Positions 3,075 through 29,421 of a stretch of DNA of 64,000 bases are shown here, in pieces. Positions within the stretch are counted from its first letter, which is position 1; each line of letters starts with the position of its first letter. Made by a program: the position numbers and the translations under genes. Source of the DNA: Candidatus Latescibacterota bacterium (GTDB lineage: Bacteria; Latescibacterota; UBA2968; UBA8231). Where the stretch lies: NCBI GenBank assembly GCA_965242865.1, contig CBDETK010000013.1, positions 416,001-480,000 on the forward strand, in the 5' to 3' direction. The notes under the pieces are model-generated. The model made no database searches and had not been told where the DNA came from. It worked only from the letters and a program-made list of their open reading frames with translations.

Positions 3075-4598
3075 TCACTGCTGCGCGGCGGGCGGGCGGA
3101 ATTTTGCGATGGCTTGGGCGGCTGCGGCCGAGTCTCCGGCCTGCCGGTACGCGAGCACGAGCCCGCGCTGGGCCGCTGGCCGATCGGGAGCTTGGACTAG
3201 TGCCTGTTCGTATCGCTGGGCGGCCGCGTGGGCATCGCCTTGCTGCAACTCGAGATTCCCCAGCGCAATGAGGATGTCCGCCAAATGCTCGGACCACTCC
3301 AGAGCCTGGTTGTACGCCTCGCGGCTTAGGTCAATGTAGCCGCCGGTGGCGTAGGCCGTGCCCAAGTTGTACCAAGCCAAGCCATAGTCTGGCCTGAGAT
3401 TCAGAGCTTGGCGGTACGCGGCGATCGCTTCGCCGGAGCGGCCCAAGCGGATGTGGGCATTGCCGAGGTTTTGCCACGCTCGGGCGTTGTCTGGCTGGAG
3501 GGCCAAGCCGGCGCGCAGGTGTCTTACGGCCCCCGCGTCGTGCCCGAGGCGGGCGTAGAGGCGGGCGAGGTCAAAGTGTGCGCTGGGATTGCGGCCCGGC
3601 TGGGCCAGTGCCCGCAGCTGCTCAATCTGGGCCACGTGTGGCTCGATGCGCCGCTGGGCCGCGTCCTGCGCTTCGGCGTCTCGGCTGCGCCCCAGATGGC
3701 GGTACGCGGAAGCCAATTGCAATCGGACCGCGGGATGCACCGGGTCGAGCGCGAGGGCCCGCTCAAGAGCAGTGGCCGCCTCAACGTACTGCTCCAGCTT
3801 GGCTCGGGACACGCCGAGGCCAATGTGGGCCTCCACCGCAAAGGGGTCGAGATGGACGGCGGTCGAAAACGCCTGTAGGGCCGGGCGGCCCCGTCCCACC
3901 TGTAGGAGGGCGCGGCCGGTCGCCACCTCGTAGCGGACGCTGTCCGGGGCCAAGGCGACCGCGCGTTGGAGGAGTGCCAAACCTTCTGCACAACGCCCTA
4001 GCCGCTCGCACTGGAGAACACCCAATGCAAAGCTGGCCTCGTGAGATGCGGGATCCAATTCCACCGCCCGCTCCAGCGAAATCTGCGCGGCCGCTACATC
4101 CCCTCGCGCCCCTTGCACCGCGCCCATCAACTCGTGCAGCGTAGGGCGGGCCGGTTCCAGCGCGATCGCTTCGGCGAGTGCGAGTTGGGCGTTCTCAAGT
4201 TGCCCGAGCCCGAGCCACGCCCCTGCTAGCCGCTCCAATGTCTCGGCATCGCGCTTGGCCGCGACGGCTCGCTGCGCTAGGGCGAGTGCTGTCGCGTGGT
4301 CGCGGACCCGGGCCATAACCTCGCTAAGCCCCAGCAGTGCTCCCACGTGCAGACTGTCTGACCGGAGAATCCGCTCGAACTGGTCCATGGACCGATCGGT
4401 GTGTCCCAAGTCGAGCAGCACGTGGGCCAGCGCCAGCCGCGTCTCGCGATCGGCGGGCCGCTCGCGCAGTTGTTTTTCGTAGGTTAGCTGCAACCGCCCC
4501 AACTCGTCGGCCGTGGGCGGCGTGGCCGCCTTATCGCACCCCACGAGCACCGCGATCAGGATGAGGCCCCGCGCAGACGCGCTCACAGCGGCGTCCAT
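3075..4598 (-). CDS. Tetratricopeptide repeat protein, probable lipoprotein
   Basis: Many TPR motifs (AWQNLGNA..., AWYNLGTA...); LVGC lipobox-like N-terminus. Confidence 0.85.
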   Translation of the reverse strand: MDAAVSASARGLILIAVLVGCDKAATPPTADELGRLQLTYEKQLRERPADRETRLALAHVLLDLGHTDRSMDQFERILRSDSLHVGALLGLSEVMARVRDHATALALAQRAVAAKRDAETLERLAGAWLGLGQLENAQLALAEAIALEPARPTLHELMGAVQGARGDVAAAQISLERAVELDPASHEASFALGVLQCERLGRCAEGLALLQRAVALAPDSVRYEVATGRALLQVGRGRPALQAFSTAVHLDPFAVEAHIGLGVSRAKLEQYVEAATALERALALDPVHPAVRLQLASAYRHLGRSRDAEAQDAAQRRIEPHVAQIEQLRALAQPGRNPSAHFDLARLYARLGHDAGAVRHLRAGLALQPDNARAWQNLGNAHIRLGRSGEAIAAYRQALNLRPDYGLAWYNLGTAYATGGYIDLSREAYNQALEWSEHLADILIALGNLELQQGDAHAAAQRYEQALVQAPDRPAAQRGLVLAYRQAGDSAAAAQAIAKFRPPAAQQ

Positions 4599-6295
4599 GG
4601 CTCGCCCTCGACGATGCGGACGAAGCGGCCGGCCGGCACCGTCCCCACAGTCTGCAATTCACCCGAGGGCCAACGAATTAGGATGCTGTCCACCGCTGTC
4701 CTGCGCCCGAGCCCGAAGTGTAAGCGCAGGTCGTTGTGCGACAGGTAACTGCTGCCGCCCCGCACCTCGGCCATCTGCCGCAGAGCAGCGGCAACCACGG
4801 TGACCCGCGCCCCGATCCCGCTGCGATTGCTCCGCGTACCTTCGACCTCGACGGAGATCCAGTTGGATCGATTGCCGCCGTCGTTTCTGAGCAGGTGCGG
4901 GGGCTGGTTGTTGTTCGACACGAATAGATCGACATCGCCGTCGTTGTCGTAGTCGGCCGCAGCCGATCCTCGCCCCACACCCGGTGAGAACGCCGTCAGC
5001 CCGCTGGCCACGGTCGCATCGGTGAACGTGCCGTCGCGATTGTTCAGGAAGAGCTGGTCGTGCTGGGCATAGCGCGGGCCGGCGCTGTCGAGAATCTCGA
5101 TGTTGGGCTCGACATGGCCGTTGGCGAGAAACAGATCGGGGTAGCCATCGTTGTCGATGTCGATGAAATCGGTCCCAAAGGTGAGGGTCTGATAGGTCGG
5201 CCCACCCAGTCCGCTCTGGGCGGTGTGGTCTGCGAATTGACCCGCCCCGGCATTGTGCAGCAGCCGGCAAGGCTCCCACTGAAAATTGCACACGCTTAGG
5301 TCGAGGCGGCCGTCGCGATCGTAGTCGGCCCAATCAGTGCCCATGCCCGCTTCCGGGACGCCATCGGGGCTGGTCGCGACGCTGGCGGCGACCCCGACTT
5401 CGGCAAATCGGGACCCGTCGTTGCGGAACAGGAAATTCGGCTCGTGGTCGTTGGCGACGTAGAGATCGAAATCGCCGTCGCTGTCGTAGTCGGCAAATCC
5501 CACGCCGAGCTGGCGGCCTTCTTCGGTCCAGAGTCCCATTGAGGCGGTGATGTCCGTGAAGCGGAGGTCGCCATCGTTGCGGAACAGCACCCCGGAATCG
5601 CCGGGATAGGCTCCAGGGCCGCAGTAAATCTGAATCGGCCCACTCCGGCACTCCGGGTGCTCGTCCCCGACGATCCGCACATCGTTGGCGACATACAGAT
5701 CCAAATCGCTGTCGAGATCGATATCGGCGAAGGCCGCGCTCGTGGACACCCGGAGGTCGCCGGTTCCCGCCCGGGCGGTCACGTCCGCAAAGCGGCCGTT
5801 GCCCAAGTTGCGATAGAGCCGGTTGGCGCCCCAGTTGGTGACGTAGAGATCCGCATGGCCATCGTTGTCAATGTCCCCAACGCCGACCCCCATGCCAAAG
5901 CTGGTGTCGGCGACCCCTGCTTCGGCTGCTCTATCGACAAACGTTCCGTCGGTCTGATTCGCAAACAGGGCGTTGGCCGGCGGGTCAGCGGTGCGTCCGC
6001 CGTGAATAGCCGCGCTGTTCACGACGTAGAGATCGGGAAAGCTGTCGCCGTTGAAGTCGGCAAATGCGGCGCCCGAGCCGTGGGTTTCGGGATAGTAATA
6101 GGACCCGGCCGCGCCGTTGAAGTGGCGGAATTCGATCCCAGCCTCGGCGGCGACCTCGCTGAAGCGAGGGAGGGGCCGCGCCGATTTTCCACCGTCGCTG
6201 CAACCCGACAAAACGAGCGCGGTCGCCAAAGCAACTCCCAGCACCCGACGTGGACGATTTGGGGCGTTGAATCGCTGCTGTACCCTATACATCAT
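4583..6295 (-). CDS. CRTAC1/ASPIC-UnbV family FG-GAP repeat protein
   Basis: Repeated DxDxDGxxDLYV motifs; C-terminal GIGARV...SYLSHN...HFGLG...WPSG. Confidence 0.9.
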   Translation of the reverse strand: MMYRVQQRFNAPNRPRRVLGVALATALVLSGCSDGGKSARPLPRFSEVAAEAGIEFRHFNGAAGSYYYPETHGSGAAFADFNGDSFPDLYVVNSAAIHGGRTADPPANALFANQTDGTFVDRAAEAGVADTSFGMGVGVGDIDNDGHADLYVTNWGANRLYRNLGNGRFADVTARAGTGDLRVSTSAAFADIDLDSDLDLYVANDVRIVGDEHPECRSGPIQIYCGPGAYPGDSGVLFRNDGDLRFTDITASMGLWTEEGRQLGVGFADYDSDGDFDLYVANDHEPNFLFRNDGSRFAEVGVAASVATSPDGVPEAGMGTDWADYDRDGRLDLSVCNFQWEPCRLLHNAGAGQFADHTAQSGLGGPTYQTLTFGTDFIDIDNDGYPDLFLANGHVEPNIEILDSAGPRYAQHDQLFLNNRDGTFTDATVASGLTAFSPGVGRGSAAADYDNDGDVDLFVSNNNQPPHLLRNDGGNRSNWISVEVEGTRSNRSGIGARVTVVAAALRQMAEVRGGSSYLSHNDLRLHFGLGRRTAVDSILIRWPSGELQTVGTVPAGRFVRIVEGEPWTPL

Positions 6296-6329
6296 AATTA
6301 TAGCAATCCTACATCATTTTCAAGACTGG

Positions 6330-6349
6330 ATTCCCGCTTGTGCGGGAAT
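6330..6349. repeat. REP-like palindrome of ATTCCC-N8-GGGAAT type
   Basis: ATTCCC-GCTTGTGC-GGGAAT, intergenic, in TGGATTCCCGC...GCGGGAATGAC context. Confidence 0.65.
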
Positions 6350-6467
6350 GACGGAGACCGGCTCTACGGCTTGTTCAACATGACCCAAGGGGGATTTTTC
6401 AGACCGCCTCTAAGGAGGGTTGCTGTGAGGTCAGAGGCGAGTTGGTCGCAAGCGGGCGGCGGGCCGC

Positions 6468-7523
6468 TTAGTCCACCGCGGGATTTTCCAAATACGCCAG
6501 CAGCAACCGCGCCGCGTTGACGATGCCGTCCCACGCGCAGATTTCGTACCCGTGCGTGTTGTCGCCCGGGTAGCCAATCAGCGCCGCGCGCCCAATGGCA
6601 CCGGACGTTTTGGCAATGGACGAGTCGCTGGAGTACGAAGTGAGGACGGCCGGTTGGATGCCGAACCCGCCGACCGCGGCGAGGGCGTCAAAGCGGTCGA
6701 TGATGCGTGCGTCGTACAGGCCGCGGCTGTCGCGGACGCCGATGATAGGGTCGCCGCTGTTGGCCGTGCCATACTCAGCCGCGACCGGCGCAATGTCGAT
6801 GGCAACAGCCGCTTCTACCGGCAGCCGCCCGAGCGCGTACAGCGCGCCGTGCCCGCCGATTTCTTCGCTGGAACTGGCCACGAGATATACGTCTTGGGCC
6901 GGCCGGTTCGCCCGCAAGTGCAAGCCCACTTCAAGCATGATGGCCAAGCCGGCGCGGCAATCGAGGTTGTAGCCGCAGACGCAATCGCCTAGCCGCCAGA
7001 GTGCCTTGTGCCTACCGGCGATGACCACCCGGGTGCCGGCGCGCACCCCGCGCTGGGCCAACTCCTCGGGCGCGAGCCTCGTTTCAATCCACATCTGTTC
7101 CCATTTGAGGGGGTGGTCGTCTTTGAGCCGCCCGGCCGGACTCTCGGTGGAGACGTGCTTGGCGCCGATGGAGAGCACGCCCGGGCACAGACCGTCCCGC
7201 GCCATGATCTCGACCGGGCTTTCCCCGAGTGCCCAAGGGTGCAAACCGCCCAAGGGCTGCACCCGGATTTTGCCATCGGCTTCAACGCGCTTGACGATGA
7301 GGGCGATCTCGTCCTTGTGGGCGAGGGCTGCCACGGGCTGATCGCAGCGTTGGCCCTTGACGTGGATGATGATGTTGTCGGCCGCATCCTGCCAGACAGC
7401 GTCGCCGATGGGGGCGGCGAGCTCGGTGACGAGGGCGTCCATCGCGGCTTCCGCGCCCGAAGGCGCGTGTGCGGCGAGCAGCTGCTCGACAAAGCCGTAA
7501 AGGCGTTGGGCATCAATGGTCAT
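6468..7523 (-). CDS. M42/M20 family metallopeptidase
   Basis: AHKDE, NLDCR, SEEIG and THGYE metal-binding motifs; start placed at MTIDAQ. Confidence 0.85.
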   Translation of the reverse strand: MTIDAQRLYGFVEQLLAAHAPSGAEAAMDALVTELAAPIGDAVWQDAADNIIIHVKGQRCDQPVAALAHKDEIALIVKRVEADGKIRVQPLGGLHPWALGESPVEIMARDGLCPGVLSIGAKHVSTESPAGRLKDDHPLKWEQMWIETRLAPEELAQRGVRAGTRVVIAGRHKALWRLGDCVCGYNLDCRAGLAIMLEVGLHLRANRPAQDVYLVASSSEEIGGHGALYALGRLPVEAAVAIDIAPVAAEYGTANSGDPIIGVRDSRGLYDARIIDRFDALAAVGGFGIQPAVLTSYSSDSSIAKTSGAIGRAALIGYPGDNTHGYEICAWDGIVNAARLLLAYLENPAVD

Positions 7524-7527
7524 CGGG

Positions 7528-8442
7528 TCATTCTGCTTCCAGAACGTCCGGGTCGAGTTGATACCAAAACACCGTGCCGGATTTAATGAGGTCCTGTATC
7601 CGATCATCGCGGCGCAGGCCAGCGACCGCAGGGTATGAACGCCTACCTGTGAACTCGGTCAGCAACTCGGCGTTGCGCATGGCTCGACGGGTATCCCGTC
7701 CATTGGCGGTGAAGGAGATTTCTACGGCAATGTAACAAGGATCGCCATCCGAGTCCGTGGCCTCCATAATCAGGTCGGCCCGGCGGTAGCTTTTCAACTC
7801 GTTTGCGGGAATGATCGACGTGTTGGCTTGGTCGGTCATCATCCACAGATCATCTTGAGTGAGGGTTTTTGTCCGCCGCAGGCCCATTTCCCTAGCGATG
7901 CTAGTGGCTTCTCTGAGAGCGGCGGTGCGGGCGTGGCTGCCTTTGAGTATGCCGAGATCCGTTTGGATAGACCTCACTTGGGTTTTGAGCGTGCCGACAT
8001 CTTCTTTGAGTATGCTGACGTCTTTTTTGAGCGTACTGACCTCTTCTTTAAGCGTACTGACGTCTTCTTTAAGCGTACTGACGTCTTTTTTAAGTATGCT
8101 GACGTCTTTTTTAAGTATGCTGACGTCTTTTTTGAGCGTACTGACGTCTTCTTTAAGCGTACTGACGTCTTTTTTAAGTATGCTGACGTCTTTTTTAAGA
8201 ACGCCGACATCTTTTTTGAGAGCCTCTACTTGGGTTTCAAGGGCATCAAAACGTCGGTTCGTGGCCTCGACGAAGCTGTGCATCTCGGCGACGAAGCTGT
8301 GCATCTCGGCGACGAACTGAGTGAACTTTTGGGGCAGTTCGAGCAATTCGCGCGACAGCAGCCGAGTGCGCAGGGCCTCAACCCAATCGGGGTTTTCGTC
8401 CAGTGCGTGAAGCAGGTCTTCTATGGTATGGATCGTGGTCAT
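7528..8442 (-). CDS. Coiled-coil heptad-repeat protein with a possible C-terminal PD-(D/E)XK-like domain
   Basis: 11 LK(K/E)(D/E)V(S/G)x heptads; C-terminal RADL...IAVEIS motif. Confidence 0.7.
   Translation of the reverse strand: MTTIHTIEDLLHALDENPDWVEALRTRLLSRELLELPQKFTQFVAEMHSFVAEMHSFVEATNRRFDALETQVEALKKDVGVLKKDVSILKKDVSTLKEDVSTLKKDVSILKKDVSILKKDVSTLKEDVSTLKEEVSTLKKDVSILKEDVGTLKTQVRSIQTDLGILKGSHARTAALREATSIAREMGLRRTKTLTQDDLWMMTDQANTSIIPANELKSYRRADLIMEATDSDGDPCYIAVEISFTANGRDTRRAMRNAELLTEFTGRRSYPAVAGLRRDDRIQDLIKSGTVFWYQLDPDVLEAE
7990..8220 (-). repeat. In-frame 21-bp tandem repeat, 11 copies
   Basis: Near-identical units such as TCTTTTTTAAGTATGCTGACG on the + strand. Confidence 0.9.
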
Positions 8443-8557
8443 TAAGTTCCCGCCCATTTTGCGTTTTGGAGCCTACGAATTTGTTTGATCTAAATAGACA
8501 GAAAGGCCCCGTCAAGCGCAAGTCTCGGGCGATCGCTCGGGCCGCGCAGAAAAGCGA

Positions 8558-9166
8558 TCAGGCCGGTGCGGCGAGCGGCCCAATCACTTCTTCGGCCAGC
8601 CCGCGCAAGGTCTTTTGCAGCCGCAGGCGGCCCCGGTTGACGCGCGATTTGACCGTGCCCACGGGGCAATTAATGATCTGGGCAATTTCCTCATACGAGA
8701 GCCCATTCATATCGCGGAGGAGCACGGCGGCGCGAAACTCTGTCGGCAGCCCCTCAATGGCATGGACGACGAGGGACTTGACGCGGGTGCCATCGGTCTG
8801 TTCGCCGGGCAGGGGGTCTTTGGCCACCGGCTCGTAAAAGGCGGCGGGCTGGTCGTCGTCACTGGGGCTGATCGGAACCCAATGCCAGCGCTTGCGGCGG
8901 CGCAGTTCGGTCTTGGCCAAATTGCCGGCAATGGTGTAGAGCCAAGTGGAAACCTGTTCGATGGCTGGGTACTGGTGGCTGTGGCGCAGGCAGCGGAGAA
9001 AAGTCTCTTGGACGATGTCCTCGGCCGTTTCCCTATCGCCGACAAAGCGATAGACGAAATTGTACAAAGGGGTGCGGTAGCGTTTGACCAGTATGCCGAG
9101 GTGGCCTTGGTCCTCAGCGGCCCGCAGCAAAACTTCCCTATCTGTGAGCTCCTTCGTCGCTTCCAT
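8558..9166 (-). CDS. ECF RNA polymerase sigma-70 factor (RpoE-like)
   Basis: [17 protein letters not shown] and [22 protein letters not shown] motifs; AAGGAG RBS. Confidence 0.92.
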
Positions 9167-9262
9167 GGTTGTGCTCCTTTTGGGTGACGTGCGCCGCTTG
9201 CTGAAGGCAAGGCGACACAACTCAAGCGATTATCGTCGTGGCTATACGGCTAACGTAAACTT

Positions 9263-9278
9263 AGCAAGAACCGTGCCA
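9263..9278 (-). promoter_or_regulatory. Sigma54 (-24/-12) promoter upstream of the ECF sigma gene
   Basis: Minus strand reads TGGCAC-GGTTC-TTGCT, a match to TGGCAC-N5-TTGCW. Confidence 0.75.
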
Positions 9279-9354
9279 TTGCTCGCGGAGGCGAAAATAG
9301 GCCCCTTTTCGCCCGTTTTTAGGGGGTATTGGCCACAAAAAACCGAATGCAGCA

Positions 9355-9386
9355 CTCAGAAATCTGAGGGTCCTCAGAAATCTGAG
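9355..9386. promoter_or_regulatory. Tandem palindromes, candidate enhancer (UAS) or operator
   Basis: CTCAGA-AA-TCTGAG at 9355-9368 and 9373-9386. Confidence 0.55.
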
Positions 9387-9470
9387 GCTCGTCTTTTGAC
9401 AGATTTTGGGGCAAACAGTAGATTTCGCGCCGGTAAAATTCGCGTAATTGCTGGCGATGGAGGGGTGCTC

Positions 9471-10076
9471 GTGCAAGAGTTGACCACGCGCTTGGCGGCC
9501 TTGTGCCAAGCCAAGGGGGCCGAGAAATTCTCGGCCGAAGAAATAGTCGAGCTATTGACCGACGGCGAAGAGGTCGATTGGATCGTCGATCAAGTGCTAC
9601 CGGCCGCGGCGGAGGCCGATCGCCGCGAAATGGGCCAAGTACTGGCCGAAATAGCCGATGCGGTGGCACCGGCTCCCGCCCCCGGTGCCGAGGAACCGGG
9701 GGCCGTGGAGGAGGTGGACTTGTTCCTGCAAGCTCTGCCGGCCGGGGTTGACGTGCAGCAGGTCGAGGACCTGTTGCGCTCGCCGCAAGGGGCTTTGCTG
9801 GCCGATTTTAGTGCTTTTTGCCAAGAGCGCGGGTTTGAGGACGAGGGGGACGAAGCGGCGACGAGCGAAGCCGTAATGGAATTGCACGAGGAATGGCTAC
9901 AGACGCCACGGCCGGCGCTAGAAGGCGAAAAACCGGCCGCCGTGCTGGAGGGCGGTCGGCTCTTTCCCAGCAAGGTCGAGCCCTTCCGCCGCCAAACCCC
10001 CAAGGTCGGCCGCAACGATCCGTGCTCCTGCGGCAGCGGCAAGAAATTCAAAAGATGCTGCGGCCGGGCCGCTTGA
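9471..10076 (+). CDS. SEC-C metal-binding motif protein
   Basis: C-terminal [20 protein letters not shown]; start inferred from GGAGG RBS. Confidence 0.8.
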
Positions 10077-10077
10077 G

Positions 10078-10617
10078 ATGACCCAGCTCCACCCCTCTAC
10101 GGTCATTGAAGGCGTTTATGTCGCCGAGCTGCAATCGCACGGCGACGAGCGGGGCCGCTTTACCGAGGTGTATCGCAAGGAGTGGTTTCCCCAGCACAGC
10201 TCCGCCCTACAGTGGAACCGTTCGGACTCGCAACGGGGCGTGCTGCGCGGCCTGCACTATCACCACCGCCAAGTTGACTACTGGCACTGCGGCCTGGGCG
10301 CGTTGCGCGTCGGGCTGCTCGATTTGCGCCGCAGCTCGCCGACCTGCGGTCGGGGGCAGGTCATCGGATTGGGTCAAGAGCTATTGCAAGGCGTCTTTAT
10401 TCCGGCGGGGGTCGCGCACGGCTTTTACGCCGTTACCGACGCCATGCTTTTTTACTTGGTCGATGCTTACTACGACGGCACGGACGAGTGGGGGGTGGCT
10501 TGGGACGATCCCGACGGGGGATTGGACTGGGGCATTGCAGAGGGGCCGATTCTCTCTCCGCGCGATCGGGCGAACCCGCGACTGCGAGACATTCCCGCCG
10601 AGGATCTGCCGGGCTAG
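10078..10617 (+). CDS. rfbC: dTDP-4-dehydrorhamnose 3,5-epimerase family protein
   Basis: DERGRF, GVLRGLHY, IPAGVAHGF and WDDP motifs. Confidence 0.85.
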   Translation: MTQLHPSTVIEGVYVAELQSHGDERGRFTEVYRKEWFPQHSSALQWNRSDSQRGVLRGLHYHHRQVDYWHCGLGALRVGLLDLRRSSPTCGRGQVIGLGQELLQGVFIPAGVAHGFYAVTDAMLFYLVDAYYDGTDEWGVAWDDPDGGLDWGIAEGPILSPRDRANPRLRDIPAEDLPG

Positions 10618-10665
10618 GATACGTTGTTCGACAGCCGGGTACAAGGTTACAAAGGAGGTTACCGA

Positions 10666-11535
10666 ATGATTGCAGAGACGAGCACCGTAGTCTATCGAGC
10701 CATCAGCTTGGGTGCAGGAGCCCAGAGTTCAGTCCTAGCACTTCTCTTGTCTCGGTCTAACGCTCGCTTGGTCGAACTTGGGTATCCCAAGCCGGACGTC
10801 GCTATATTCGCCGACACCGGATGGGAGCCAGACTATGTGTACCGTCACTTGGACTGGCTCGAGGAGCAACTTGAGTATCCATTGCTTCGAGTGTCAGATG
10901 GCGACCTGAAGACCAACTTGAAAAAAGGACGCACGGTATCGAACCATCGCTTTGTCGATGTCCCTTTGTTCATGGTCAATCAGGATGGCAAGAAGGGCAT
11001 GCTGCGACGACAATGCACCAACCACTACAAGATCAGACCTATCTATCGGCGGATCAGGGAACTTGCAGGTGGACAGCGTGGACGGCCATTCCCGAAGGGT
11101 ACGCATGCCGAAATGTGGCTTGGGATTTCACTAGACGAGGTAGGCCGCATGAAACCGAGTAGGGAACCTTGGGTTGAGCATCGCTGGCCGCTTGTGGACC
11201 TCGGCATGTCGCGCCGCGATTGCGTTGAGTGGTTCGCCGCGGAGTATCCAAGCCGCCACTTGCCTAGGTCGGCCTGTGTAATATGCCCGTATCGGTCCGA
11301 CGAACATTGGCTCGAACTAAAGCGGTCGGAACCAGCCAGCTACGACGAAGCTGTAGAGTTCGACCGTTGGCTCCGACGAAGCAAAAAGACCCCTGTACGC
11401 AAGTTGCTGAATGGTCGCCCATACCTTCATGCCGCACGGCGGCCTCTTAGCAGCATCATAGAAGAACGGGAGATGGAAGGCGCGAACGAGATCAACAACT
11501 TCAATAACGAGTGCGAGGGCCTCTGCGGTGTCTGA
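10666..11535 (+). CDS. PP-loop adenine nucleotide alpha-hydrolase / PAPS-reductase-like Cys-rich protein
   Basis: ISLGAGAQSS PP-loop variant, FADTGWE, RQCTNHYKIRPI, GISLDE, RSACVICPY, ECEGLCGV; AAGGAGG RBS. Confidence 0.75.
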   Translation: MIAETSTVVYRAISLGAGAQSSVLALLLSRSNARLVELGYPKPDVAIFADTGWEPDYVYRHLDWLEEQLEYPLLRVSDGDLKTNLKKGRTVSNHRFVDVPLFMVNQDGKKGMLRRQCTNHYKIRPIYRRIRELAGGQRGRPFPKGTHAEMWLGISLDEVGRMKPSREPWVEHRWPLVDLGMSRRDCVEWFAAEYPSRHLPRSACVICPYRSDEHWLELKRSEPASYDEAVEFDRWLRRSKKTPVRKLLNGRPYLHAARRPLSSIIEEREMEGANEINNFNNECEGLCGV

Positions 11536-12775
11536 AACAGGGCTGATAACGGTCAGTCCTAAGTTCCCGCTATATCCCTATCAGCGGCAGGTGCTGACTG
11601 ACATCGTCCGTGCCCTATCATCTCCTGAGCGTCGAGCTGTGGCTCATCTTCCCACCGGTGCCGGAAAGACCAGAATCGCAGCTCATATAGCCTGCCACTT
11701 GCTGAATGAGAAAGATACCAACGATTCCCTCGTCATCTGGTTGGCGGCTACAGAGGAACTTTGCGAACAGGCGGCAGACCAACTCTCAGAGGCTTGGACT
11801 CATCTGGGACGACGAGATGCCTGCATTCATCGACACTGGGGAAGCCGGTCGCTTGATCTAAGGCGTCTCCCAGCTGGGTTCTTGGTGACAGGTCTTGCCA
11901 AACTGCGCTCCGCTGCATTCCAAGACAACACCCTTCTTGCCCACCTTGCCCACTGTGTCGCGGCCATCATCTTTGACGAAGCTCATCAGGCAGTTGCGAA
12001 AACCTACTCCTTTATAACTGAGCAGCTATGCAGTGTAAGGCCGCCACTTCTCGGTCTTACGGCCACGCCGGGCCGCTCAGCGAATCTGACTGAGGACGAC
12101 TATCGACTTGCCGGCATGTTCAATCACAACAAAGTTTCGATAGACCCACGAGGCCACGCCAATCCCGTCACCTATCTCATCCAAAACCGCTACTTGGCCG
12201 ACCCGCGCTTTGTGCCAGTCAGCTTCGAGTCTGATGCTGCCATCGCAGACCCGCAACCCGGCATGGATTACAGCAAGGATGATCTTGACCATATAGGCCA
12301 CAACCGCGAACGTACTGGCAGAATCGTCGAACTCGCTGAGGCCGCGGCTGCACGACACCTTCGCACCCTTGTGTTCTGCCCGTCGGTAGAAAGTGCCTTG
12401 GAATGCAACAAAATTCTGCGAGAAAAAGGGGTCGTAGCTAACGTCATTACCGCCAATACTCCCGGTGAAGACCGGCGAGTTATCATCGACGGTTTCAAAA
12501 GTGCCAGCAGGGATCATATCGTGTTGTTTAACTACGGCGTACTCACCGCCGGTTTCGACGCACCCCGGACGCGATGCGTCATCATCGCTCGCCCGACTAC
12601 TTCTCTAGTGCTTTACTCGCAAATGGCGGGACGAGCGATGCGCGGCCCTAGGGCAGGTGGAAATTCAAAAGCTGAGATACTCACCGTTGCCGACACGAAT
12701 CTCCCGGGATTCGGGTCTGTGACTGATGCCTTCACAAATTGGGAGGAACTATGGTCGACCAACTCGCCGAACTAA
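11528..12775 (+). CDS. SF2 DEAD/DEAH-box (ResIII-like) helicase
   Basis: PYQ, LPTGAGKT, DEAH, GLTATP, LTAGFDAP and QMAGRAMR motifs. Confidence 0.92.
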   Translation: MSETGLITVSPKFPLYPYQRQVLTDIVRALSSPERRAVAHLPTGAGKTRIAAHIACHLLNEKDTNDSLVIWLAATEELCEQAADQLSEAWTHLGRRDACIHRHWGSRSLDLRRLPAGFLVTGLAKLRSAAFQDNTLLAHLAHCVAAIIFDEAHQAVAKTYSFITEQLCSVRPPLLGLTATPGRSANLTEDDYRLAGMFNHNKVSIDPRGHANPVTYLIQNRYLADPRFVPVSFESDAAIADPQPGMDYSKDDLDHIGHNRERTGRIVELAEAAAARHLRTLVFCPSVESALECNKILREKGVVANVITANTPGEDRRVIIDGFKSASRDHIVLFNYGVLTAGFDAPRTRCVIIARPTTSLVLYSQMAGRAMRGPRAGGNSKAEILTVADTNLPGFGSVTDAFTNWEELWSTNSPN

Positions 12776-14604
12776 AAGACGCCGATCGCAGCCTCTTTCC
12801 AAGCGATTTAACCATACGTGCTCTACGAGATAGTCGGTATCACAACACCGCCTATGCCATTGCCGAACTCATCGACAACTCGATAGAGGCAAATGCTGGA
12901 CAGATTGACCTCCTCTGCATGGAAGAGCCTCAGAGAGTAAGGGCGCGGACTCAGCGACGAGTTTCCGAAGTGGCGGTCCTTGACAACGGCGATGGGATGG
13001 ACGTAAAGACCCTCCTTGACGCCCTCAAATTTGGCGGGGGAACCCGTCATAATTCGGATAGAGGAGTAGGGAAATACGGCATGGGCCTCCCCACCTCGTC
13101 GATGTCGCAATGCAAAAGGGTGGATGTATGGACGTGGCAGGATGGCCTAGATTCGGTATGGCACTCCAGCATAGACGCTGACGACATCGAGCAAGGGGAC
13201 CATGAGGTTCCCATTCCCGATCAAGAGACGCCTATACCCGAGGTCTGGAGAGAGGCCGGCAGCGACAAAATATATGAACATCGCTCGGGTACGCTTGTCG
13301 TTTGGAGCAAACTGGACAAAATTCAGTGGAGAACCGGCAGCACGATCCTCAGACACACAGCCCGAGAGGTCGGTCGGATCCATCGGCACTGGATTGATGC
13401 GGAGATGACAAAAATACGAGTCGGCTTTTTTCTCAAAAACCGCCCTACCGAAATTGAGAGCGAGGACTGTATTGTCGCAAACGATCCTCTCTACCTGATG
13501 AATCCTTCCTCTACTCCTGTGCCTTGGAGTAACGAACCGATGTTTAGAGAATGGGCCAAGAAAGAATATACGCCTACCGTGGAGGGCAAAGAGGTCACTA
13601 TTGAAGTGAAGTATTCAATCGTTAAGCCTGAAGCCTTGCAGACGAGCAGAGTTACGCAGAATCCCGGTGCTGAAAAGCATGGTACTCACGCCAGACACAA
13701 CATCGGCGTATCGGTCGTTCGGGAGGACAGGGAGATTGTGCTCGAAGACGCCTTTCTTAGGGAAGGTGGCAGTGCTGAGAATCCACAGAACCGCTGGTGG
13801 GGTTGCGAGGTGCATTTCCCTCGCAGTTGCGATGAGTTGTTTGGCGTAGATCACAACAAGCAGATGGCTGCAAATTTCACACATGCTGCGAAGACCCTCG
13901 CTCGTGACGACCGTCCCAATCAGGCAATACTAGACGAGATGGGAATCGACGACGACATCATCTATACCATAGTAGGAGATATCCGAGACCAAACACGTGC
14001 CATGATGCGTGAAATAAGGCAGATGTTTGATCAGAGATGGGACTCACAGAATGGGAGTGGCAGAAAAAGCCCCGAAAAGAAAGCCGCGAAGACCGCTACT
14101 GACGCAGACAGAGACGCTATAGAAGCCGGTAAAGAGACGCCGACTAAGACTGATAGAGACCGTGAGCAAATTCCGCCCCAAGAGCGGGAGGCTCGCCTTA
14201 CGGAACAGTTCAAAGCATCTGGTCGGGCCGATCAAGATGCCCAACAACTCGCGAAGCAGTTGGTAGAGGAAGACCTCTCGTACCAGTTCAACTCGGATCA
14301 GCTCGACGGATCCCAGATTTTTAACGTGCGCTCGAACCAAGGAGTTCTGCACATCAATCTCAACACCGACCACCCGATCTATAACCTCCTCAAGCACATT
14401 GAAGACGACCTTCCAGAAGATATAGACGAGAGCAACCCTGCATTCCAAGCCAGCGTTGCGATCAGATTATTGTTGTCGTCGTGGGCTCGAATGGAAGATC
14501 AGACCGAATCACGTGAGGAGCGAATACGCATTCAGGACATTGCCATAAACTGGGGTCGTCAGGTAGATAAGGCCATCAATCAACTGCGCGATAGAGAGGG
14601 CTAG
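12751..14604 (+). CDS. MORC-like GHKL ATPase
   Basis: AIAELIDNSIEA, DNGDGM, GKYGMGL and GTLV Bergerat motifs; C-terminal LNTDHP. Confidence 0.85.
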   Translation: MVDQLAELKDADRSLFPSDLTIRALRDSRYHNTAYAIAELIDNSIEANAGQIDLLCMEEPQRVRARTQRRVSEVAVLDNGDGMDVKTLLDALKFGGGTRHNSDRGVGKYGMGLPTSSMSQCKRVDVWTWQDGLDSVWHSSIDADDIEQGDHEVPIPDQETPIPEVWREAGSDKIYEHRSGTLVVWSKLDKIQWRTGSTILRHTAREVGRIHRHWIDAEMTKIRVGFFLKNRPTEIESEDCIVANDPLYLMNPSSTPVPWSNEPMFREWAKKEYTPTVEGKEVTIEVKYSIVKPEALQTSRVTQNPGAEKHGTHARHNIGVSVVREDREIVLEDAFLREGGSAENPQNRWWGCEVHFPRSCDELFGVDHNKQMAANFTHAAKTLARDDRPNQAILDEMGIDDDIIYTIVGDIRDQTRAMMREIRQMFDQRWDSQNGSGRKSPEKKAAKTATDADRDAIEAGKETPTKTDRDREQIPPQEREARLTEQFKASGRADQDAQQLAKQLVEEDLSYQFNSDQLDGSQIFNVRSNQGVLHINLNTDHPIYNLLKHIEDDLPEDIDESNPAFQASVAIRLLLSSWARMEDQTESREERIRIQDIAINWGRQVDKAINQLRDREG

Positions 14605-14606
14605 GA

Positions 14607-15452
14607 ATGTACGGGCGGCCCGGAGACCTGTTGAGCAATGTTTGTTCAGGTGCCCAACATCTCATCATGGCGGCACCGTACATCAAGGCTGATGCTCTCA
14701 CTAAAGTTCTGGCCGCCGTTAGCCCGGCAGCATCCCTTATATGCATTACGCGGTGGAATCTGCACGACCTCGCGGTGGGTGCTTCCGACACCGAATGCCG
14801 CACTATTGTCACTGAACGTGGAGGCTCATTCAGGCTCCACCCCTCTCTTCACGCCAAATACTATCGAGTCGATAACGTGGTCCTCATCGGGTCTGCTAAT
14901 CTGACCTCTTCCGCATTGGGCTGGTCGCGCCAGCCTAATCTGGAAATTCTCTGTCGTCCAAGAGACGACTTTGACGCGGACGCCTTTCAGCAGTTTCTGT
15001 TTGAAGGAGCAAGAGAAATCGGCGCTGAGGAATTCGCACATTGGGAATCCATAGCTAAAATCGGTGCGCGAGAGGCGGGAAAGGCAGCTAGCGGCCAACC
15101 CCGGCTTGACACTTGGCGACCGGCAACTCGCGACTTTAGGAACTTAGAACTCGCCTATCAGGGTAGAGAAGATGAGATCGCTTCATTCGACGAGCAGCGA
15201 GCGGCGCAGCGCGACATCCACACGCTCCTAATCCCGCCGAGCTCAACCGCTGAACAGGTCCGAATGTGGGCATCGGCTTGTCTGCTTGCTGCTCCCTTTA
15301 CCAACGCCGTGATACGGCTGCATGGTATAGAGGAACCAGATGCTTCCCGCTCGCTTGCTGCGGCCTATAATCTCGGAAGAGCTGAGGCTCGCAGAGACAT
15401 GGAAACTGTCCAGAACTGGCTCGCATTCCTCATGCCAGAATTACTGAACTGA
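14607..15452 (+). CDS. Phospholipase D-like (single HKD) nuclease-family protein
   Basis: APYI, LHAKYYRVD and IGSANLT motifs. Confidence 0.82.
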   Translation: MYGRPGDLLSNVCSGAQHLIMAAPYIKADALTKVLAAVSPAASLICITRWNLHDLAVGASDTECRTIVTERGGSFRLHPSLHAKYYRVDNVVLIGSANLTSSALGWSRQPNLEILCRPRDDFDADAFQQFLFEGAREIGAEEFAHWESIAKIGAREAGKAASGQPRLDTWRPATRDFRNLELAYQGREDEIASFDEQRAAQRDIHTLLIPPSSTAEQVRMWASACLLAAPFTNAVIRLHGIEEPDASRSLAAAYNLGRAEARRDMETVQNWLAFLMPELLN

Positions 15453-15530
15453 AAGGACGCCGATTCTATCGCCGTGCGATCGGGCGAATCCGCGTTGAGG
15501 GATATTCCACAGAGAGGAGATGCCGACCTA

Positions 15531-16394
15531 ATGACATTTGATTTGATAAAAGCCCTCTTAGACACGCAAGCCCTGCGCCTCGCCCCACCGGGCGAAGTCT
15601 TTTGGTACACCTCGGGTACGGTAGGGCCCTACTACCTCAACGCGCACTATCTCTACGGCGGCCCGGCCGCGGCGACCGAATTGCTATCCTTCATCGACGC
15701 GGCCAAAGAGCAGGAGAGCTTCCCCCAGTGCTTGCGGGAGCGCGTCTTAAAGCAGTGCGCTGAGGACGCCATCTATCGCCAAGTCATCGACGCCTTGGTC
15801 GCACAAGCGCGGGCCAGCCGAGCGCGGTTCGACGCAGTGTCCGGTGGCGAGCGCCGCGACTGGTTTTTTTCACTGGCCGTGGCCGAGCGGTTGGGCAAGC
15901 CCGCATTGCTAATTTACAAGGATCGGCGCACCGCGTTATTGGAGGGGGACGCGCTGCGCCCGATAGCGGCCAACGAAATGGACGCGCTGCACGTGGCCGA
16001 TATGGTGACCGAAGCGTCGAGTTACCTCCGCGCTTGGATTCCGGCGATCGCGGCCGGTGGCGGGCGAATCGCCTATGCGGCCAATGTGGTCGATCGCGGG
16101 CAAGGCGGCCTAGAAGTGCTCAAAGCCGAGGGCGTGGCGGCCGGAGCCCTTATGAGGGTGGATGAGGCGTTCTTTGGGCGCCTAGGCGAACTGGGGCAGG
16201 TAGATGAGGCGCAACGGGCGAGGCTGATTGAGTACTACCGCGATCCGTACGGAGCGATGCGGGCCTTCTTGGCGGCGCATCCCGAGTTTTTGCGGAACGC
16301 ACTCCGCGGCGGCGATGCCCGGGCAGCGCAACGCGCCCGCTTGCTCCTCGCCGAAAACCCCTACGCGCTCAACGAGGCCCTCTGGCGGGGCTGA
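15531..16394 (+). CDS. Orotate phosphoribosyltransferase-like PRTase
   Basis: YTSGTVGPYY, SGGERRDWFFS and PRPP loop HVADMVTEASS. Confidence 0.7.
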   Translation: MTFDLIKALLDTQALRLAPPGEVFWYTSGTVGPYYLNAHYLYGGPAAATELLSFIDAAKEQESFPQCLRERVLKQCAEDAIYRQVIDALVAQARASRARFDAVSGGERRDWFFSLAVAERLGKPALLIYKDRRTALLEGDALRPIAANEMDALHVADMVTEASSYLRAWIPAIAAGGGRIAYAANVVDRGQGGLEVLKAEGVAAGALMRVDEAFFGRLGELGQVDEAQRARLIEYYRDPYGAMRAFLAAHPEFLRNALRGGDARAAQRARLLLAENPYALNEALWRG

Positions 16395-26467: not shown

Positions 26468-26598
26468 CGCGCCGCGCCGAACATCCATTGGAAAAAGGAC
26501 CGCGGCAAGATCAGTTCCCATGGTTCTGGAACAACGGCAATGTGCATTGGACCAAAGAGCAGAAACTCACGGCCCGAGACCGGGCGGAGGGCGCATGA
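26468..26598 (+). pseudogene. Frameshifted 3' remnant of a lost gene, possibly a large DNA methyltransferase
   Basis: RAAPNIHWKKDRGK, then in another frame DQFPWFWNNGNVHWTKEQKLTARDRAEGA*; stop overlaps the next ATG (ATGA). Confidence 0.5.
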
Positions 26599-29420
26599 CG
26601 ATGACAAGCACACAGCAAAATTGGCCTTATCCCGGGTCGCGTTGGTGGAAGTTCGACTTCCACACGCATACGCCGGCGTCCGTTGATACCTACTGGGCTC
26701 GATCGGGTGACGCCCCATCCCCTGAATCATGGCTGCTCCGATACATGGCCGCCGAAATCGATTGTGTGGCAATCACGGACCACAATAGCGGTGCTTGGGT
26801 TGATCGCCTTAAAGCAGCTTACGAGGCGATGAAGGGGCAAGCCGATGAGGGATCGCCACCGGAAGGGTTTCGAGAACTGACGCTATTTCCGGGGGTCGAG
26901 ATTTCGGTACAGGGGGGATTCCACCTGCTCGCCATCCTAGATCCCGATACCACTACAAGCGACATCGATAAATTGCTGGGGCAGGTGGGTTACGACGGAA
27001 CCAAAGGATCCAGCGACGGAGTGACCCACAAGGGTGCCGCCGAGGTGGTCTGTGAAATTAGGGACGCCGGAGGCATTCCGATCCCAGCCCATGCCGACCG
27101 ACAAGGTGAAAATGGCAACGGCAAGGGCCTTCTCGCTGTACGTACAGATACCCGTAAACTCCAACTCGACGCCAACACGGTTCGCCAAGTGCTTGACACT
27201 GAATATCTACTGGCGATGGAGTGGGAAGACATGGCGAAACTTCTTCCTAAGTATGTTGAGAAACAAGCCAAAAAACTGACGCGGGTGCTCGGTAGCGACT
27301 GCCACAGCTTCCAAGGAACGGGTATTCACGGATCCCGTTTCACTTGGGTCAAGATGGCAAAACCTACATTGGAAGGGCTGCGTCTCGCGCTCTTAGATGG
27401 CAACGAAATCTCGATTCGACGGAGCGACGACGAGGGGGAGTTCGACCCATTCCAGAAGCCCACGCACTTCATCACCAGCGTTGCGGTCGAGTCTGCTCGA
27501 TTTATGGGTGTAAGGACCACGACACGACTTGTCCTCACACCGTACTACAACGCGCTGATTGGCGGGCGCGGAACCGGCAAGTCCACAATTGTTCATGCGT
27601 TGCGCCTTGCCTATCGGCGCGATAAAGAGTTACAGCATTTGGGCGAAAAAACAGAGCCCTATCGCCAGTTCAGAAGTTTTTCCCAATCTGTCAAGGGACG
27701 CAGCGGGGATGGTGGGTTGCGCGATGACACGGAAATTCGCGTGGAGCTGATGCGCGACGAGGTAGAGCACATCTTACGTTGGCGACACGATGGACAAAAG
27801 ACGGTTGTCGAAGAACGAGACACGGACGGCCAGTGGCAGCCCACTGCAAGCCAAGCGGTGAACTCCGAGCGTTTCCCAATCCGGCTGCTTTCGCAGGGCC
27901 AGATTGCGGCCATGGCCGGAGAGAATCGGCAGGCTTTGCTCGATGTCATTGACGACGCGGCTGATGTGGCCAAGTTACATCGCGCCTTTGACGAGACGAA
28001 GACCTCCTATTTAGCGCAGCGAGCTAGGCTGCGCGAACTGGAGGAAAAGTTAGCTAGGCGACCAGAGTTGGAACGCAGGCTCGCAGATTTGACCCGCAAG
28101 CTCGCAACGTTCACACAATCACATCACGCTGAAGTCCTGAAGGCTCATCAACAGGCACTGCGTCAACGCCGGGAGATCGATACGACTGCGGAACAATTGC
28201 GAGAAATGCCCGGACGCGTCACGGCGTTGGCCGAGGACTTGCTTCTCGACGACTGGCCAGATGGTGTCTTCAATGCCGCACAGGACAGCGATGCTCTCGC
28301 TTGGAGGAGCGAAGCCGAGCGGCTCGTGGCGGCAATGCAAGAGGCACTCACTCGTAGTGCCGACACATTTACGGACAAGGTGCAGGAGTGGCAAAAGGAC
28401 GAAAGATTCAGCCAGTGGCAACAGCGTGCCGAGAAGGCCGGATCGGACTACAAGGATCTTCAAGCGGTGCTCGCCGATCAGGGAGTGACCGATCCGCAAG
28501 CCTTTGGGCGGTTAGAACAGGAGCGCCAGAACCTCGAAGCGCAACTGAAGCAACTCGACTTGTTGAATCAGGATTGGGATCGCCTTGACGAGGAGAACAA
28601 AAACCAGTGGCAACGAGTGCTTGAAGCGCGTAAGGCCATCACTCGAAAGCGTGCCGAGTTTGTTGCGAAAACGCTGGAGACCAACCCCTTTGTGAAAATT
28701 GAGGTCGTCGGATTCGGCTTTGAGCCTCGTCATATCGAGCACAGCCTACGTAGAATTATCGAGGTGCCAGATGATCGTTTTGAATACGACATTCTGCGAG
28801 AGAAAGATGGCAAACCCGTTGGCGGCTTGGCCTTTGACATCGCGCAGGACGAAAATCGCGAAGTGAAGCTAGAGGATGCGAAACGACGCCTGATAGAAAT
28901 CTGCCCTAACTTCCGCGGCCAATTTCGCAACTACCTTGAACGCAAGCACGAGAAGCTGGAGTTCACCGATTACATCCAGTGCTGGTTTCCAGAGGACGAC
29001 CTGCGGATTGAGTACAGCCGCCAAGGGGACGGCAGCGATTGGACGTCCATCACCCAAGGCTCGCAAGGACAGCGTTCAGCCGCACTACTGGCATTCCTGC
29101 TTGCATTCGGCGATGAGCCCCTTGTATTGGATCAGCCCGAGGACGATCTGGACAATCACCTGATTTACGACTTGGTCGTACGACAGATTCGCGAGAACAA
29201 ATTGCGGCGACAACTGATCATAGTCACCCACAACCCCAACGTGATGATCAACGGAGACGCGGAAATGGTCCATGCCTTCAATTTTAGTGGCGGTCAATGC
29301 AGAGTCATTGAGCACGGTGCCCTACAGGAAAAAGCAGTCCGTGAAGAAGTCTGCCGGGTCATGGAGGGCGGACGAGAGGCGTTCGCTCGGCGCTGGGAAC
29401 GCTTGGGACGAGAAAGCTGA
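26595..29420 (+). CDS. PHP phosphoesterase fused to an SMC/ABC-like ATPase (TrlF/Ppl-like)
   Basis: DFHTHTPAS, TDHN, PAH, GSDCH; GGRGTGKST; SQGQRS, DQPEDDLDN, VTHN. Confidence 0.88.
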   Translation: MTMTSTQQNWPYPGSRWWKFDFHTHTPASVDTYWARSGDAPSPESWLLRYMAAEIDCVAITDHNSGAWVDRLKAAYEAMKGQADEGSPPEGFRELTLFPGVEISVQGGFHLLAILDPDTTTSDIDKLLGQVGYDGTKGSSDGVTHKGAAEVVCEIRDAGGIPIPAHADRQGENGNGKGLLAVRTDTRKLQLDANTVRQVLDTEYLLAMEWEDMAKLLPKYVEKQAKKLTRVLGSDCHSFQGTGIHGSRFTWVKMAKPTLEGLRLALLDGNEISIRRSDDEGEFDPFQKPTHFITSVAVESARFMGVRTTTRLVLTPYYNALIGGRGTGKSTIVHALRLAYRRDKELQHLGEKTEPYRQFRSFSQSVKGRSGDGGLRDDTEIRVELMRDEVEHILRWRHDGQKTVVEERDTDGQWQPTASQAVNSERFPIRLLSQGQIAAMAGENRQALLDVIDDAADVAKLHRAFDETKTSYLAQRARLRELEEKLARRPELERRLADLTRKLATFTQSHHAEVLKAHQQALRQRREIDTTAEQLREMPGRVTALAEDLLLDDWPDGVFNAAQDSDALAWRSEAERLVAAMQEALTRSADTFTDKVQEWQKDERFSQWQQRAEKAGSDYKDLQAVLADQGVTDPQAFGRLEQERQNLEAQLKQLDLLNQDWDRLDEENKNQWQRVLEARKAITRKRAEFVAKTLETNPFVKIEVVGFGFEPRHIEHSLRRIIEVPDDRFEYDILREKDGKPVGGLAFDIAQDENREVKLEDAKRRLIEICPNFRGQFRNYLERKHEKLEFTDYIQCWFPEDDLRIEYSRQGDGSDWTSITQGSQGQRSAALLAFLLAFGDEPLVLDQPEDDLDNHLIYDLVVRQIRENKLRRQLIIVTHNPNVMINGDAEMVHAFNFSGGQCRVIEHGALQEKAVREEVCRVMEGGREAFARRWERLGRES

Positions 29421-29421
29421 G

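Follow-up and report, generated by a model that had tools for sequence, protein, structure and literature searches.

A four-gene cassette headed by a small Cys-rich PP-loop protein in a Latescibacterota bacterium: a candidate phosphorothioate-like restriction system

The PP-loop gene and its conserved residues

The window analysed here is the whole 64,000-nt stretch at positions 416,001 to 480,000 (forward strand) of contig CBDETK010000013.1 from a Candidatus Latescibacterota bacterium (assembly GCA_965242865.1), and the element described is a cassette of four genes starting at position 10666 of this window with the gene for a small Cys-rich PP-loop protein. This first gene is followed by the genes coding for a superfamily 2 (SF2) helicase, a MORC-like GHKL ATPase and an HKD/PLD nuclease, which overlap or abut one another. 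In the first-pass annotation, made from the sequence alone, the PP-loop protein was regarded as a possible stand-alone enzyme, a view that is not supported: its gene heads a fixed four-gene operon both at this locus and at 34 of the 38 loci related to it, members of the family being solitary only in phages and plasmids. Its membership in the operon is near certain.

The PP-loop gene occupies positions 10666..11535 (+) and its open reading frame (ORF) codes for 289 aa of a protein resembling phosphoadenosine phosphosulfate (PAPS) reductases and SspD. Although a longer version could begin with the TTG at 10624, the ATG at 10666 was taken as the start because the Shine-Dalgarno sequence AAGGAGG, read directly at 10652..10658 (+), is located 7 nt ahead of it and the homologues begin at the same methionine.

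The family alignment consists of 50 sequences with a mean column identity of 41%, and all six cysteines of the protein (C117, C186, C204, C207, C283 and C287) are invariant in it. The canonical PP-loop consensus is SGGxDS; the nucleotide-binding loop found here, SLGAGAQSS (residues 14-22, 10705..10731, +), is a variant with Gln in the position of the canonical Asp, and its residues G16, G18, Q20 and S21 are invariant as well. The cysteines are distributed among four motifs, namely RQCT (residues 115-118, 11008..11019, +), where R115 and C117 are invariant, RRDC (R183-D-C186, 11215..11223, +), where R183 and C186 are invariant, SACVICPY (residues 202-209, 11269..11292, +), containing the CxxC pair C204/C207 and the invariant residues S202, C204, C207 and P208, and the terminal ECEGLCGV (residues 282-289, 11509..11532, +), in which the dyad C283/C287 and G285 are invariant. 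The AlphaFold2 model has a predicted local distance difference test (pLDDT) score of 92.4, falling below 50 for residues 276-289, and the tail bearing C283 and C287 is therefore modelled as disordered; it is also acidic. The first-pass annotation had listed the same ORF together with SLGAGAQSS, RQCT, SACVICPY and ECEGLCGV, all of which were found as quoted, while C186 of RRDC, the sixth invariant cysteine, had been overlooked.

Family membership and fold

The PP-loop protein belongs to a populous family, with far more matches than chance would give: 7108 of the 8000 scored candidates matched it at E<=0.001, the best 120 being 74-96% identical, and in a representative library 4142 clusters (50% identity) matched at E<=0.001 and 1207 at E<=1e-30. 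Its named homologues are labelled hypothetical in their sources. The Pfam model PAPS_reduct (PF01507) gave 18.5 bits (E 0.0022) with a gathering cut-off of 22.5, and a search of the whole genome with this model gave 18.7 bits for the PP-loop protein vs 116.2 bits for the CysH-type gene of the host, located elsewhere on the contig, which agrees with the first-pass view that the protein is not a true CysH. None of the NCBIfam models, including those for CysH and the DndC model TIGR03183, matched it at E<=0.01.

The host possesses a true DndC, scoring 345.9 bits against TIGR03183 (equivalog cut-off 290.4 bits), at another locus of the same contig (G000:C13:3623245). With 289 aa vs 419 aa for this DndC ORF, the PP-loop protein is indeed the shorter of the two, as had been supposed at first. 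The two proteins were aligned by BLASTP at the R-x-C-T segment only (RQCT vs RWCT), and hhalign of the PP-loop family with the host DndC covered 106 columns with E 0.019 and a probability of 2.5%. A higher score was obtained with the PADLOC model of SspD (PDLC02782; E 7.6e-13, 46.8 bits, residues 13-264 vs profile positions 4-219 of 277), indicating remote homology in a library that has no curated cut-off. The match to phrog_424, a phage family named PAPS reductase, extends over residues 12-289 (E 7.1e-40, 138.3 bits), and five of five other PP-loop family members checked match phrog_424 too.

A separate locus of the host (G000:C13:3621855-3627500; positions 8855-14527 of L116) encodes in a row a DndA/SspA-like desulfurase, DndC, a DUF262-type protein (HEC-06/Orf5/SspE-like) and an SNF2 helicase (DpdE/ZorD-like). 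No DndD or DndE was detected by PADLOC among the adjacent ORFs, and this looks like a non-canonical phosphorothioate locus.

In the fold search against representative structures, PAPS and adenosine phosphosulfate (APS) reductases lead, with 7rge at Z 11.9 (root mean square deviation (rmsd) 3.5, 161 aligned residues), 6vpu at 10.8, 2goy at 10.7 and 7lhr at 10.6, the lengths aligned to these folds by VIA-align being 161-172 residues. They are closely followed by the Fe-S thiolase NcsA (Z 10.6), TilS (10.3), LarE-[4Fe-4S] (9.5) and TtuA (9.5), Cap9 being listed at 8.7. The Foldseek comparison suggested in the first-pass annotation yielded 6vpu with E 9.7e-5, in agreement with a PAPS-reductase fold, although with weak TM scores. 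The single protein found only chance matches to NOTUM in a sequence search of the PDB (E 0.36), and the family profile gave one marginal match, chain C of 21fy named PptA (E 0.0087), over the region of GxSxDE...R, R..DC and CxxC; the PptA proteins found in the literature searched are unrelated. A single Cys after a strand, as in RQCT, with a later CxxC is a layout which we take to be that of the APS-reductase cluster ligands. The initial placement of the protein in the PAPS-reductase/PP-loop fold, with a Cys pattern resembling that of Fe-S members of the superfamily, is borne out. Within the PAPS-reductase-like branch it represents a family of its own, being neither CysH nor DndC and only remotely SspD-like.

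Partner genes of the operon

The second gene (11528..12775, +) overlaps the PP-loop gene by 8 nt and codes for a minimal SF2 helicase of 415 aa with the Pfam domains ResIII (1.5e-20), DEAD and Helicase_C, whose Walker A motif PTGAGKT and DEAH box are invariant. It matches PADLOC PbeA at 3.7e-19 and the NCBIfam models RadD at 1.6e-32 and dnd_restrict_1 at 6e-10, both far under their cut-offs.

The third gene (12739..14604, +) codes for a MORC-like GHKL ATPase of 621 aa if read from the TTG, although translation may in fact begin at Met5 (ATG 12751), an invariant residue. The protein contains HATPase_c_3 (1.4e-21), resembles MzaB in its N-terminal part only and has invariant N-box and G-box residues. 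When the PDB was searched with the profile of its alignment, the best matches were MORC2, MORC3 and MORC4 (E 4.1e-10). A search of viral contigs with this protein, which reaches close relatives only, revealed no close relative.

The last gene (14607..15452, +) codes for a DrmC-like HKD/PLD nuclease of 281 aa with a C-terminal helical domain (Pfam PLDc_2, 2.1e-5). It possesses one HxK...GSxN motif, where H82, K84, S96 and N98 are invariant. In the AlphaFold2 model (pLDDT 93.0) the N-terminal domain matches the restriction enzymes SauUSI (Z 15.2, rmsd 2.5, 140 aligned residues), BfiI (12.9) and Nuc (12.8), while the C-terminal domain has only weak fold matches (BrxA, Z 5.6; SspB, Z 4.5) that are not interpretable. 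The gene upstream of the operon codes for a dTDP-sugar epimerase, and with the helicase, GHKL ATPase and PLD nuclease downstream, the PP-loop gene has no sulfate-assimilation neighbours, as was noted in the first pass.

Over 35 complete cassettes, that of the window included, the pairwise identities among the helicase, GHKL and PLD proteins correlate with r 0.88-0.95, whereas the correlation of the PP-loop protein with these three is only 0.75-0.78; hence the trio appears to be one unit and the enzyme a separable module. This contrast fits a separable modification module. The PP-loop protein is also the best conserved of the four, with a mean identity of 69.5% vs 52.1% for the PLD nuclease, and one locus (L011) has a PP-loop protein 83% identical to that of the window beside a GHKL ATPase of 46% identity. 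Complex prediction for the PP-loop protein with the helicase gave a score of 0.00, which weighs neither way.

Distribution and mobility of the cassette

A PP-loop protein of 62% identity or more is encoded at 38 distinct loci, which comprise 30 from species-representative genomes, 26 of them complete, and eight new ones from a second scan, all complete. Of the four exceptions to the complete four-gene order, two loci end at contig ends (L013 and L030) and two are decayed (L022 and L024). The hosts belong to at least six phyla and include Latescibacterota, several lineages of Chloroflexota, Binatia, Rhodothermaceae, Alphaproteobacteria and Gemmatimonadetes. In at least three genomes the cassette is present twice or in two types, some having a distant trio besides one cassette, as exemplified by L020 and L029, both on OZ241986.1, and by G084 and G134.

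The G+C content is 0.54-0.58 over the cassette vs about 0.62-0.66 around it, and the genes that flank it in the window, namely rmlC, a PRT-like gene and SMC, are common only to three close Latescibacterota relatives. In a genome of the same genus (L162, G131:C1:1656000-1672000), only residues 342-415 of the helicase are left at positions 10001-10222, a stretch of 74 codons with 95% identity located between rmlC and the PRT-like gene, which is the scar of a cassette lost from the same site. The low G+C content, the flanks limited to close relatives and the helicase remnant in the same-genus genome show the cassette to be mobile and dispensable, and it is exchanged horizontally between distant bacteria.

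Outside the cassette, positions 15474-16394 of the window code for a 306-aa protein with weak phosphoribosyltransferase-like matches (E 1.9e-5), which adjoins SMC only in close Latescibacterota relatives. In one of the 18 scanned loci (L023, Alphaproteobacteria), an 839-aa protein with an SspA/DndA-like desulfurase part at its C-terminus is encoded at 4093-6612, about 1.4 kb upstream of the cassette.

Distant relatives and exchange of partners

A second set contains 61 loci with a PP-loop gene 41-51% identical to that of the window, the family names being taken from one representative per cluster. The trio is missing in 58 of them, and genes matching PDC-M33A and PDC-M33B are present in 36 and 34 of the 61 loci, respectively. 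In the PDC-M33A/PDC-M33B operons the PP-loop domain is fused to DUF6339 (PDC-M33C) in proteins of approximately 540 aa, and downstream of the operon there is a DndB-like gene in 12 loci and GmrSD-type genes in 7 + 5 loci. The three loci carrying the trio (L059, L063 and L065, about 3400-11800) contain six-gene operons consisting of PDC-M33A, PDC-M33B, DUF6339::PP-loop, helicase, GHKL and PLD genes, where the trio fills the position of the DndB/GmrSD-like genes, being convergent (on the opposite strand) in L059.

The consensus of M33A shows N-box- and G-box-like motifs, so these three operons may hold two GHKL ATPases. The hhalign match between M33A and the GHKL protein of the cassette was weak (E 0.001, probability 21%), and a profile search of the PDB gave topo VI-B only (E 0.41); the assignment of M33A to the GHKL proteins remains a lead. 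A relation of M33B to the PLD protein was considered as well and rejected, the comparison showing none.

When the GHKL protein was searched for across the phylum, 24 of 168 genomes gave matches, some of them with an identity of only 30-45%, and ten loci with trios of this identity were inspected. The helicase and GHKL genes are present in all ten and a separate PLD gene in nine; the helicase of the tenth (L148) carries an N-terminally fused PLD domain, as described for PbeA. An ORF of the PP-loop family lies close by in nine of the ten loci (profile E 2.5e-18 to 2.8e-8) and is usually preceded by an ORF of approximately 760-1190 aa, for one of which there are weak P-loop ATPase matches; no sequence match to this large ATPase was found in the PDB. 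Some of these loci also contain DndB/DGQHR-like and GIY-YIG genes. The distant PP-loop relatives have the canonical loop SGGKDS or SGGRDS, RWCT in nine of nine, an equivalent C(Y/T)FC and, in eight of nine, CxxC within the last six residues, and their hhalign probability with the cassette family is 98.8%. The association of the PP-loop gene with the trio is thus old and modular, with exchange of Dnd/Ssp-type partners.

Homologues on phages and plasmids

By tblastn, the PP-loop family was found in 173 plasmid records, of which 105 are from Agrobacterium, and in 48 phage records. The phage matches are all less than 60% identical, and 28 of these records are Mycobacterium prophages. The ESM Atlas clusters nearest to the protein are viral. 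Together with the phrog_424 match, these counts confirm the first-pass view of a subfamily mostly from phage and mobile DNA.

The gene is solitary in the phage and plasmid records that were opened. On an Agrobacterium conjugative plasmid it adjoins the anti-restriction gene ArdC, and in a Mycobacterium prophage RecT and a DNA methylase are encoded in its vicinity. Pelagibacter, Geobacillus and Thermus phages, including the 17-kb P23-77, hold a homologue in their replication modules, and in the Mesorhizobium phage-plasmid L112 (NZ_AP023261.1) the neighbours of the relative are a P4-type primase and a large methylase. In the latter it makes up the C-terminal portion of an ORF of 440 aa (5413-6732) annotated as DNA cytosine methyltransferase, which is either a fusion or a mis-annotation. 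The company of the gene on phages and plasmids is that of protective DNA-modification genes, such as orphan modification enzymes, and not that of sulfate assimilation.

Proposed function and rival explanations

The four-gene operon is probably a defence or restriction-type system. More tentatively, and with slightly less than an even chance in our estimate, it may be an undescribed phosphorothioate-like restriction system where the PP-loop enzyme, with a chemistry that we infer, is the self-marking arm and uses a housekeeping cysteine desulfurase. The desulfurase would put a persulfide on the C283/C287 dyad of the flexible C-terminal tail, and C117, C204, C207 and perhaps C186 would hold a [4Fe-4S] cluster beside the nucleotide-binding loop, which would activate the persulfide. 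The enzyme would then pass the sulfur to the cell's own DNA to give phosphorothioate or a similar thio-mark, and the co-evolving helicase, GHKL ATPase and PLD nuclease would act as an ATP-driven restriction module that either spares marked DNA or is regulated by the mark and cuts foreign DNA, presumably that of phages.

The relay via the C283/C287 tail and a housekeeping desulfurase is suggested because the Cys dyad in DndC has been proposed to take sulfur from the desulfurase and because housekeeping IscS can stand in for DndA, as stated by Rakesh, Aravind and Krishnan 2024 (PMC10853773). As for the putative cluster, C117, C186, C204 and C207 are invariant and the Fe-S proteins NcsA, LarE-[4Fe-4S] and TtuA are among the matching folds.

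Several observations weigh against this proposal. No cysteine desulfurase, DndD/DndE or SspB/SspC-like scanner was detected among the cassette genes in the Pfam, PADLOC and NCBIfam scans, and no hypervariable specificity domain was seen in any of the four proteins. With the PP-loop Asp replaced by an invariant Gln, ATP-dependent adenylation as in DndC/SspD is not assured, and the similarity to SspD is remote (46.8 bits), that to the host DndC being negligible (E 0.019, 2.5%). SauUSI, the best structural match of the PLD nuclease, is an enzyme which we take to cut modified DNA and to depend on the modification, and the system might hence have the opposite polarity. One of the ten distant trios (L149, in G134) has no PP-loop gene within 16 kb, the genome having a complete cassette elsewhere. 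Finally, of the 18 loci whose flanks were scanned only 8 have known or candidate defence genes beside them (10 of 115 ORFs, counted without a background control), which is a weak defence-island signal.

The same operon might use another chemistry, as considered in the first-pass annotation, the mark read by the trio being not the known phosphorothioate but a thio-base or another adduct of backbone or base, or the substrate being a pre-activated adenylate. The GAGxQS loop with its invariant Gln, as opposed to SGGKDS in the relatives beside distant trios, would suit this explanation, as would the lack of a DndD/E or SspB/C partner in the cassette, the missing match to the DndC model with only a remote one to SspD, and the position of PAPS/APS reductases, which act on a pre-formed adenylate, ahead of the ATP-using thiolases among the closest folds. 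The Z scores of reductases and thiolases, however, differ by about 1 and are tied; RxCT, CxxC and the terminal dyad are common to canonical PP-loop relatives in Dnd-like contexts with DndB-like genes, and nothing points to a specific alternative product. We regard a different chemistry as unlikely. It is similarly doubtful that the PP-loop enzyme is an effector or sensor arm rather than a self-marker, tagging invading DNA, altering a nucleotide or tRNA on infection or sensing a nucleotide signal which switches the trio on. Solitary phage and plasmid homologues located by methylases and anti-restriction genes fit protective marking better, all catalytic-looking PP-loop residues are invariant, and the replacement of the trio by DndB-like and GmrSD/SspE-like genes in related operons is a modification-plus-restriction pattern. 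What speaks for such a role is the likeness of the nuclease domain to SauUSI, together with the fact that neither a recognition subunit nor a desulfurase is encoded in the cassette and that QueC-like Cap9, a PP-loop relative matched by fold, acts on proteins in another defence system.

There is very little to be said for an ordinary PAPS/APS reductase (CysH) with incidental neighbours, or for an auxiliary metabolic gene of viral type in such a setting. The best folds are those of PAPS/APS reductases, the phage homologues are annotated as PAPS reductase and phrog_424 is filed under auxiliary metabolic genes, but the protein scores 18.5 bits, below the cut-off of 22.5, has no NCBIfam CysH match and coexists with a proper PAPS_reduct gene of the host (116 bits) elsewhere. 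Besides, the synteny of the four genes is kept across phyla without sulfate-assimilation neighbours, and the phage homologues sit in replication modules. A bolder form of the marking proposal, to which we would attach only a small probability, is that a 289-aa Fe-S enzyme alone, without a scanner or a desulfurase of its own, may set a heritable sulfur or other DNA mark, that phages and plasmids carry it as a DNA disguise and that the MORC-like, helicase and PLD proteins are the reader-executor of the mark, whereby a prokaryotic MORC would be coupled to a non-methyl epigenetic mark. Such an enzyme would perhaps use a pre-activated adenylate, as PAPS reductases do, a property that may follow from its loop having no Asp.

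If the phosphorothioate-like marking proposed for the cassette is true, no smaller module for marking DNA with sulfur (or in a related way) would be known, and its restriction partner, centred on a MORC-like ATPase, would be new. The PP-loop family is large and uncharacterised. It occurs in the replication regions of Pelagibacter, Thermus, Geobacillus and Mycobacterium phages as well as on plasmids, among them those of Agrobacterium, and is now annotated as belonging to sulfur metabolism; if it is DNA-directed, such auxiliary metabolic genes would become a means of epigenetic disguise or counter-defence. The cassette would also offer a tractable single-protein system for how sulfur enters DNA, its insertion by DndC being described as still unsettled by Rakesh et al. 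2024 (PMC10853773).

Other features of the window

In a 309-aa protein encoded at 7528-8457 (-), nearly identical KKDVSxLK repeats follow one another over a long stretch (coiled coil), and the C-terminal domain is distinct. Parts of this protein have matches in the DNA close to the cassette in L001, L004 and L017. There is a second low-G+C stretch (0.56) at 26520-30678, directly after a sigma-54 gene, with genes coding for a 966-aa AAA_21/SMC_N-type ATPase and a 468-aa protein with Schlafen AlbA_2 and HATPase_c_4 domains, which is probably another defence island. The promoter and terminator scan gave counts at shuffle level and was hence uninformative, and the tRNA scan of the whole window found none.

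Comparison with known systems

The CysH family provides the closest solved folds and resembles the cassette enzyme in its degenerate loop, which lacks the Asp of PP-loops, and in its mobile C-terminal tail with Cys, the CysH tail motif presumably being ECGLH. It differs in that the cassette enzyme is under the Pfam cut-off, has six invariant cysteines with a terminal dyad and is found in a non-sulfate context.

With DndC of DndABCDE the enzyme shares the PP-loop superfamily and R-x-C-T, and DndC is itself a [4Fe-4S] protein with a Cys dyad proposed to accept sulfur, according to PMC10853773. In contrast to DndC, it has no TIGR03183 match at E<=0.01, is 289 vs 419 aa long and lacks adjacent DndA/B/D/E matches at the cassette or its flanks.

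SspD of SspABCD, whose restriction partners are SspE or SspFGH, is the best PADLOC defence match of the enzyme and falls into the same PAPS-reductase-like fold class. The two systems are also alike in having exchangeable modification and restriction modules, relatives of the cassette enzyme preceding GmrSD/SspE-like or DndB-like genes, but the cassette has no SspA, SspB or SspC matches, its loop is variant and the trio matches no SspE/F/G/H model. Beyond this remote SspD match, PADLOC 2.0 has no model for an enzyme of the cassette type. In PDC-M33, itself only a PADLOC candidate system, relatives of 41-51% identity are fused to DUF6339 in M33A/B/C operons, three of them also with the trio, whereas the cassette of the window contains no M33A, M33B or DUF6339; no mention of DUF6339 was found in the literature searched.

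Operons of MORC and SF2 helicase genes, in part with HKD, were interpreted as restriction-modification-like by Iyer, Abhiman & Aravind 2008 (PMC2292703). These operons, as well as PbeA (HKD + SF2 helicase) of PbeABCD, have their counterparts in the MORC-like GHKL ATPase, the ResIII-type helicase (with its PbeA match) and the HKD nuclease of the cassette. They carry DNA methylases or a CxC ABC ATPase with DndE, while the sole candidate modifier in the cassette is the PP-loop gene, no methylase having been found by the Pfam, PADLOC and NCBIfam scans among its four genes or immediate flanks. By this analogy the PP-loop gene seems to occupy the place of the methylase in MORC/helicase/HKD operons.

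In the literature search no paper was found that describes a combination of PAPS-reductase, helicase, GHKL and PLD genes, although the supplementary tables of PMC10853773 could still list it. The words MORC and GHKL do not occur in the main text of this 2024 Dnd reappraisal, and the terms HATPase, PLD and GHKL do not occur in Jian et al. 2021 (PMC8569181). The cassette would thus be a phosphorothioate-type modification-restriction system in which a PP-loop enzyme of phage type and minimal size is paired with a MORC-helicase-PLD partner, a combination which would be new.

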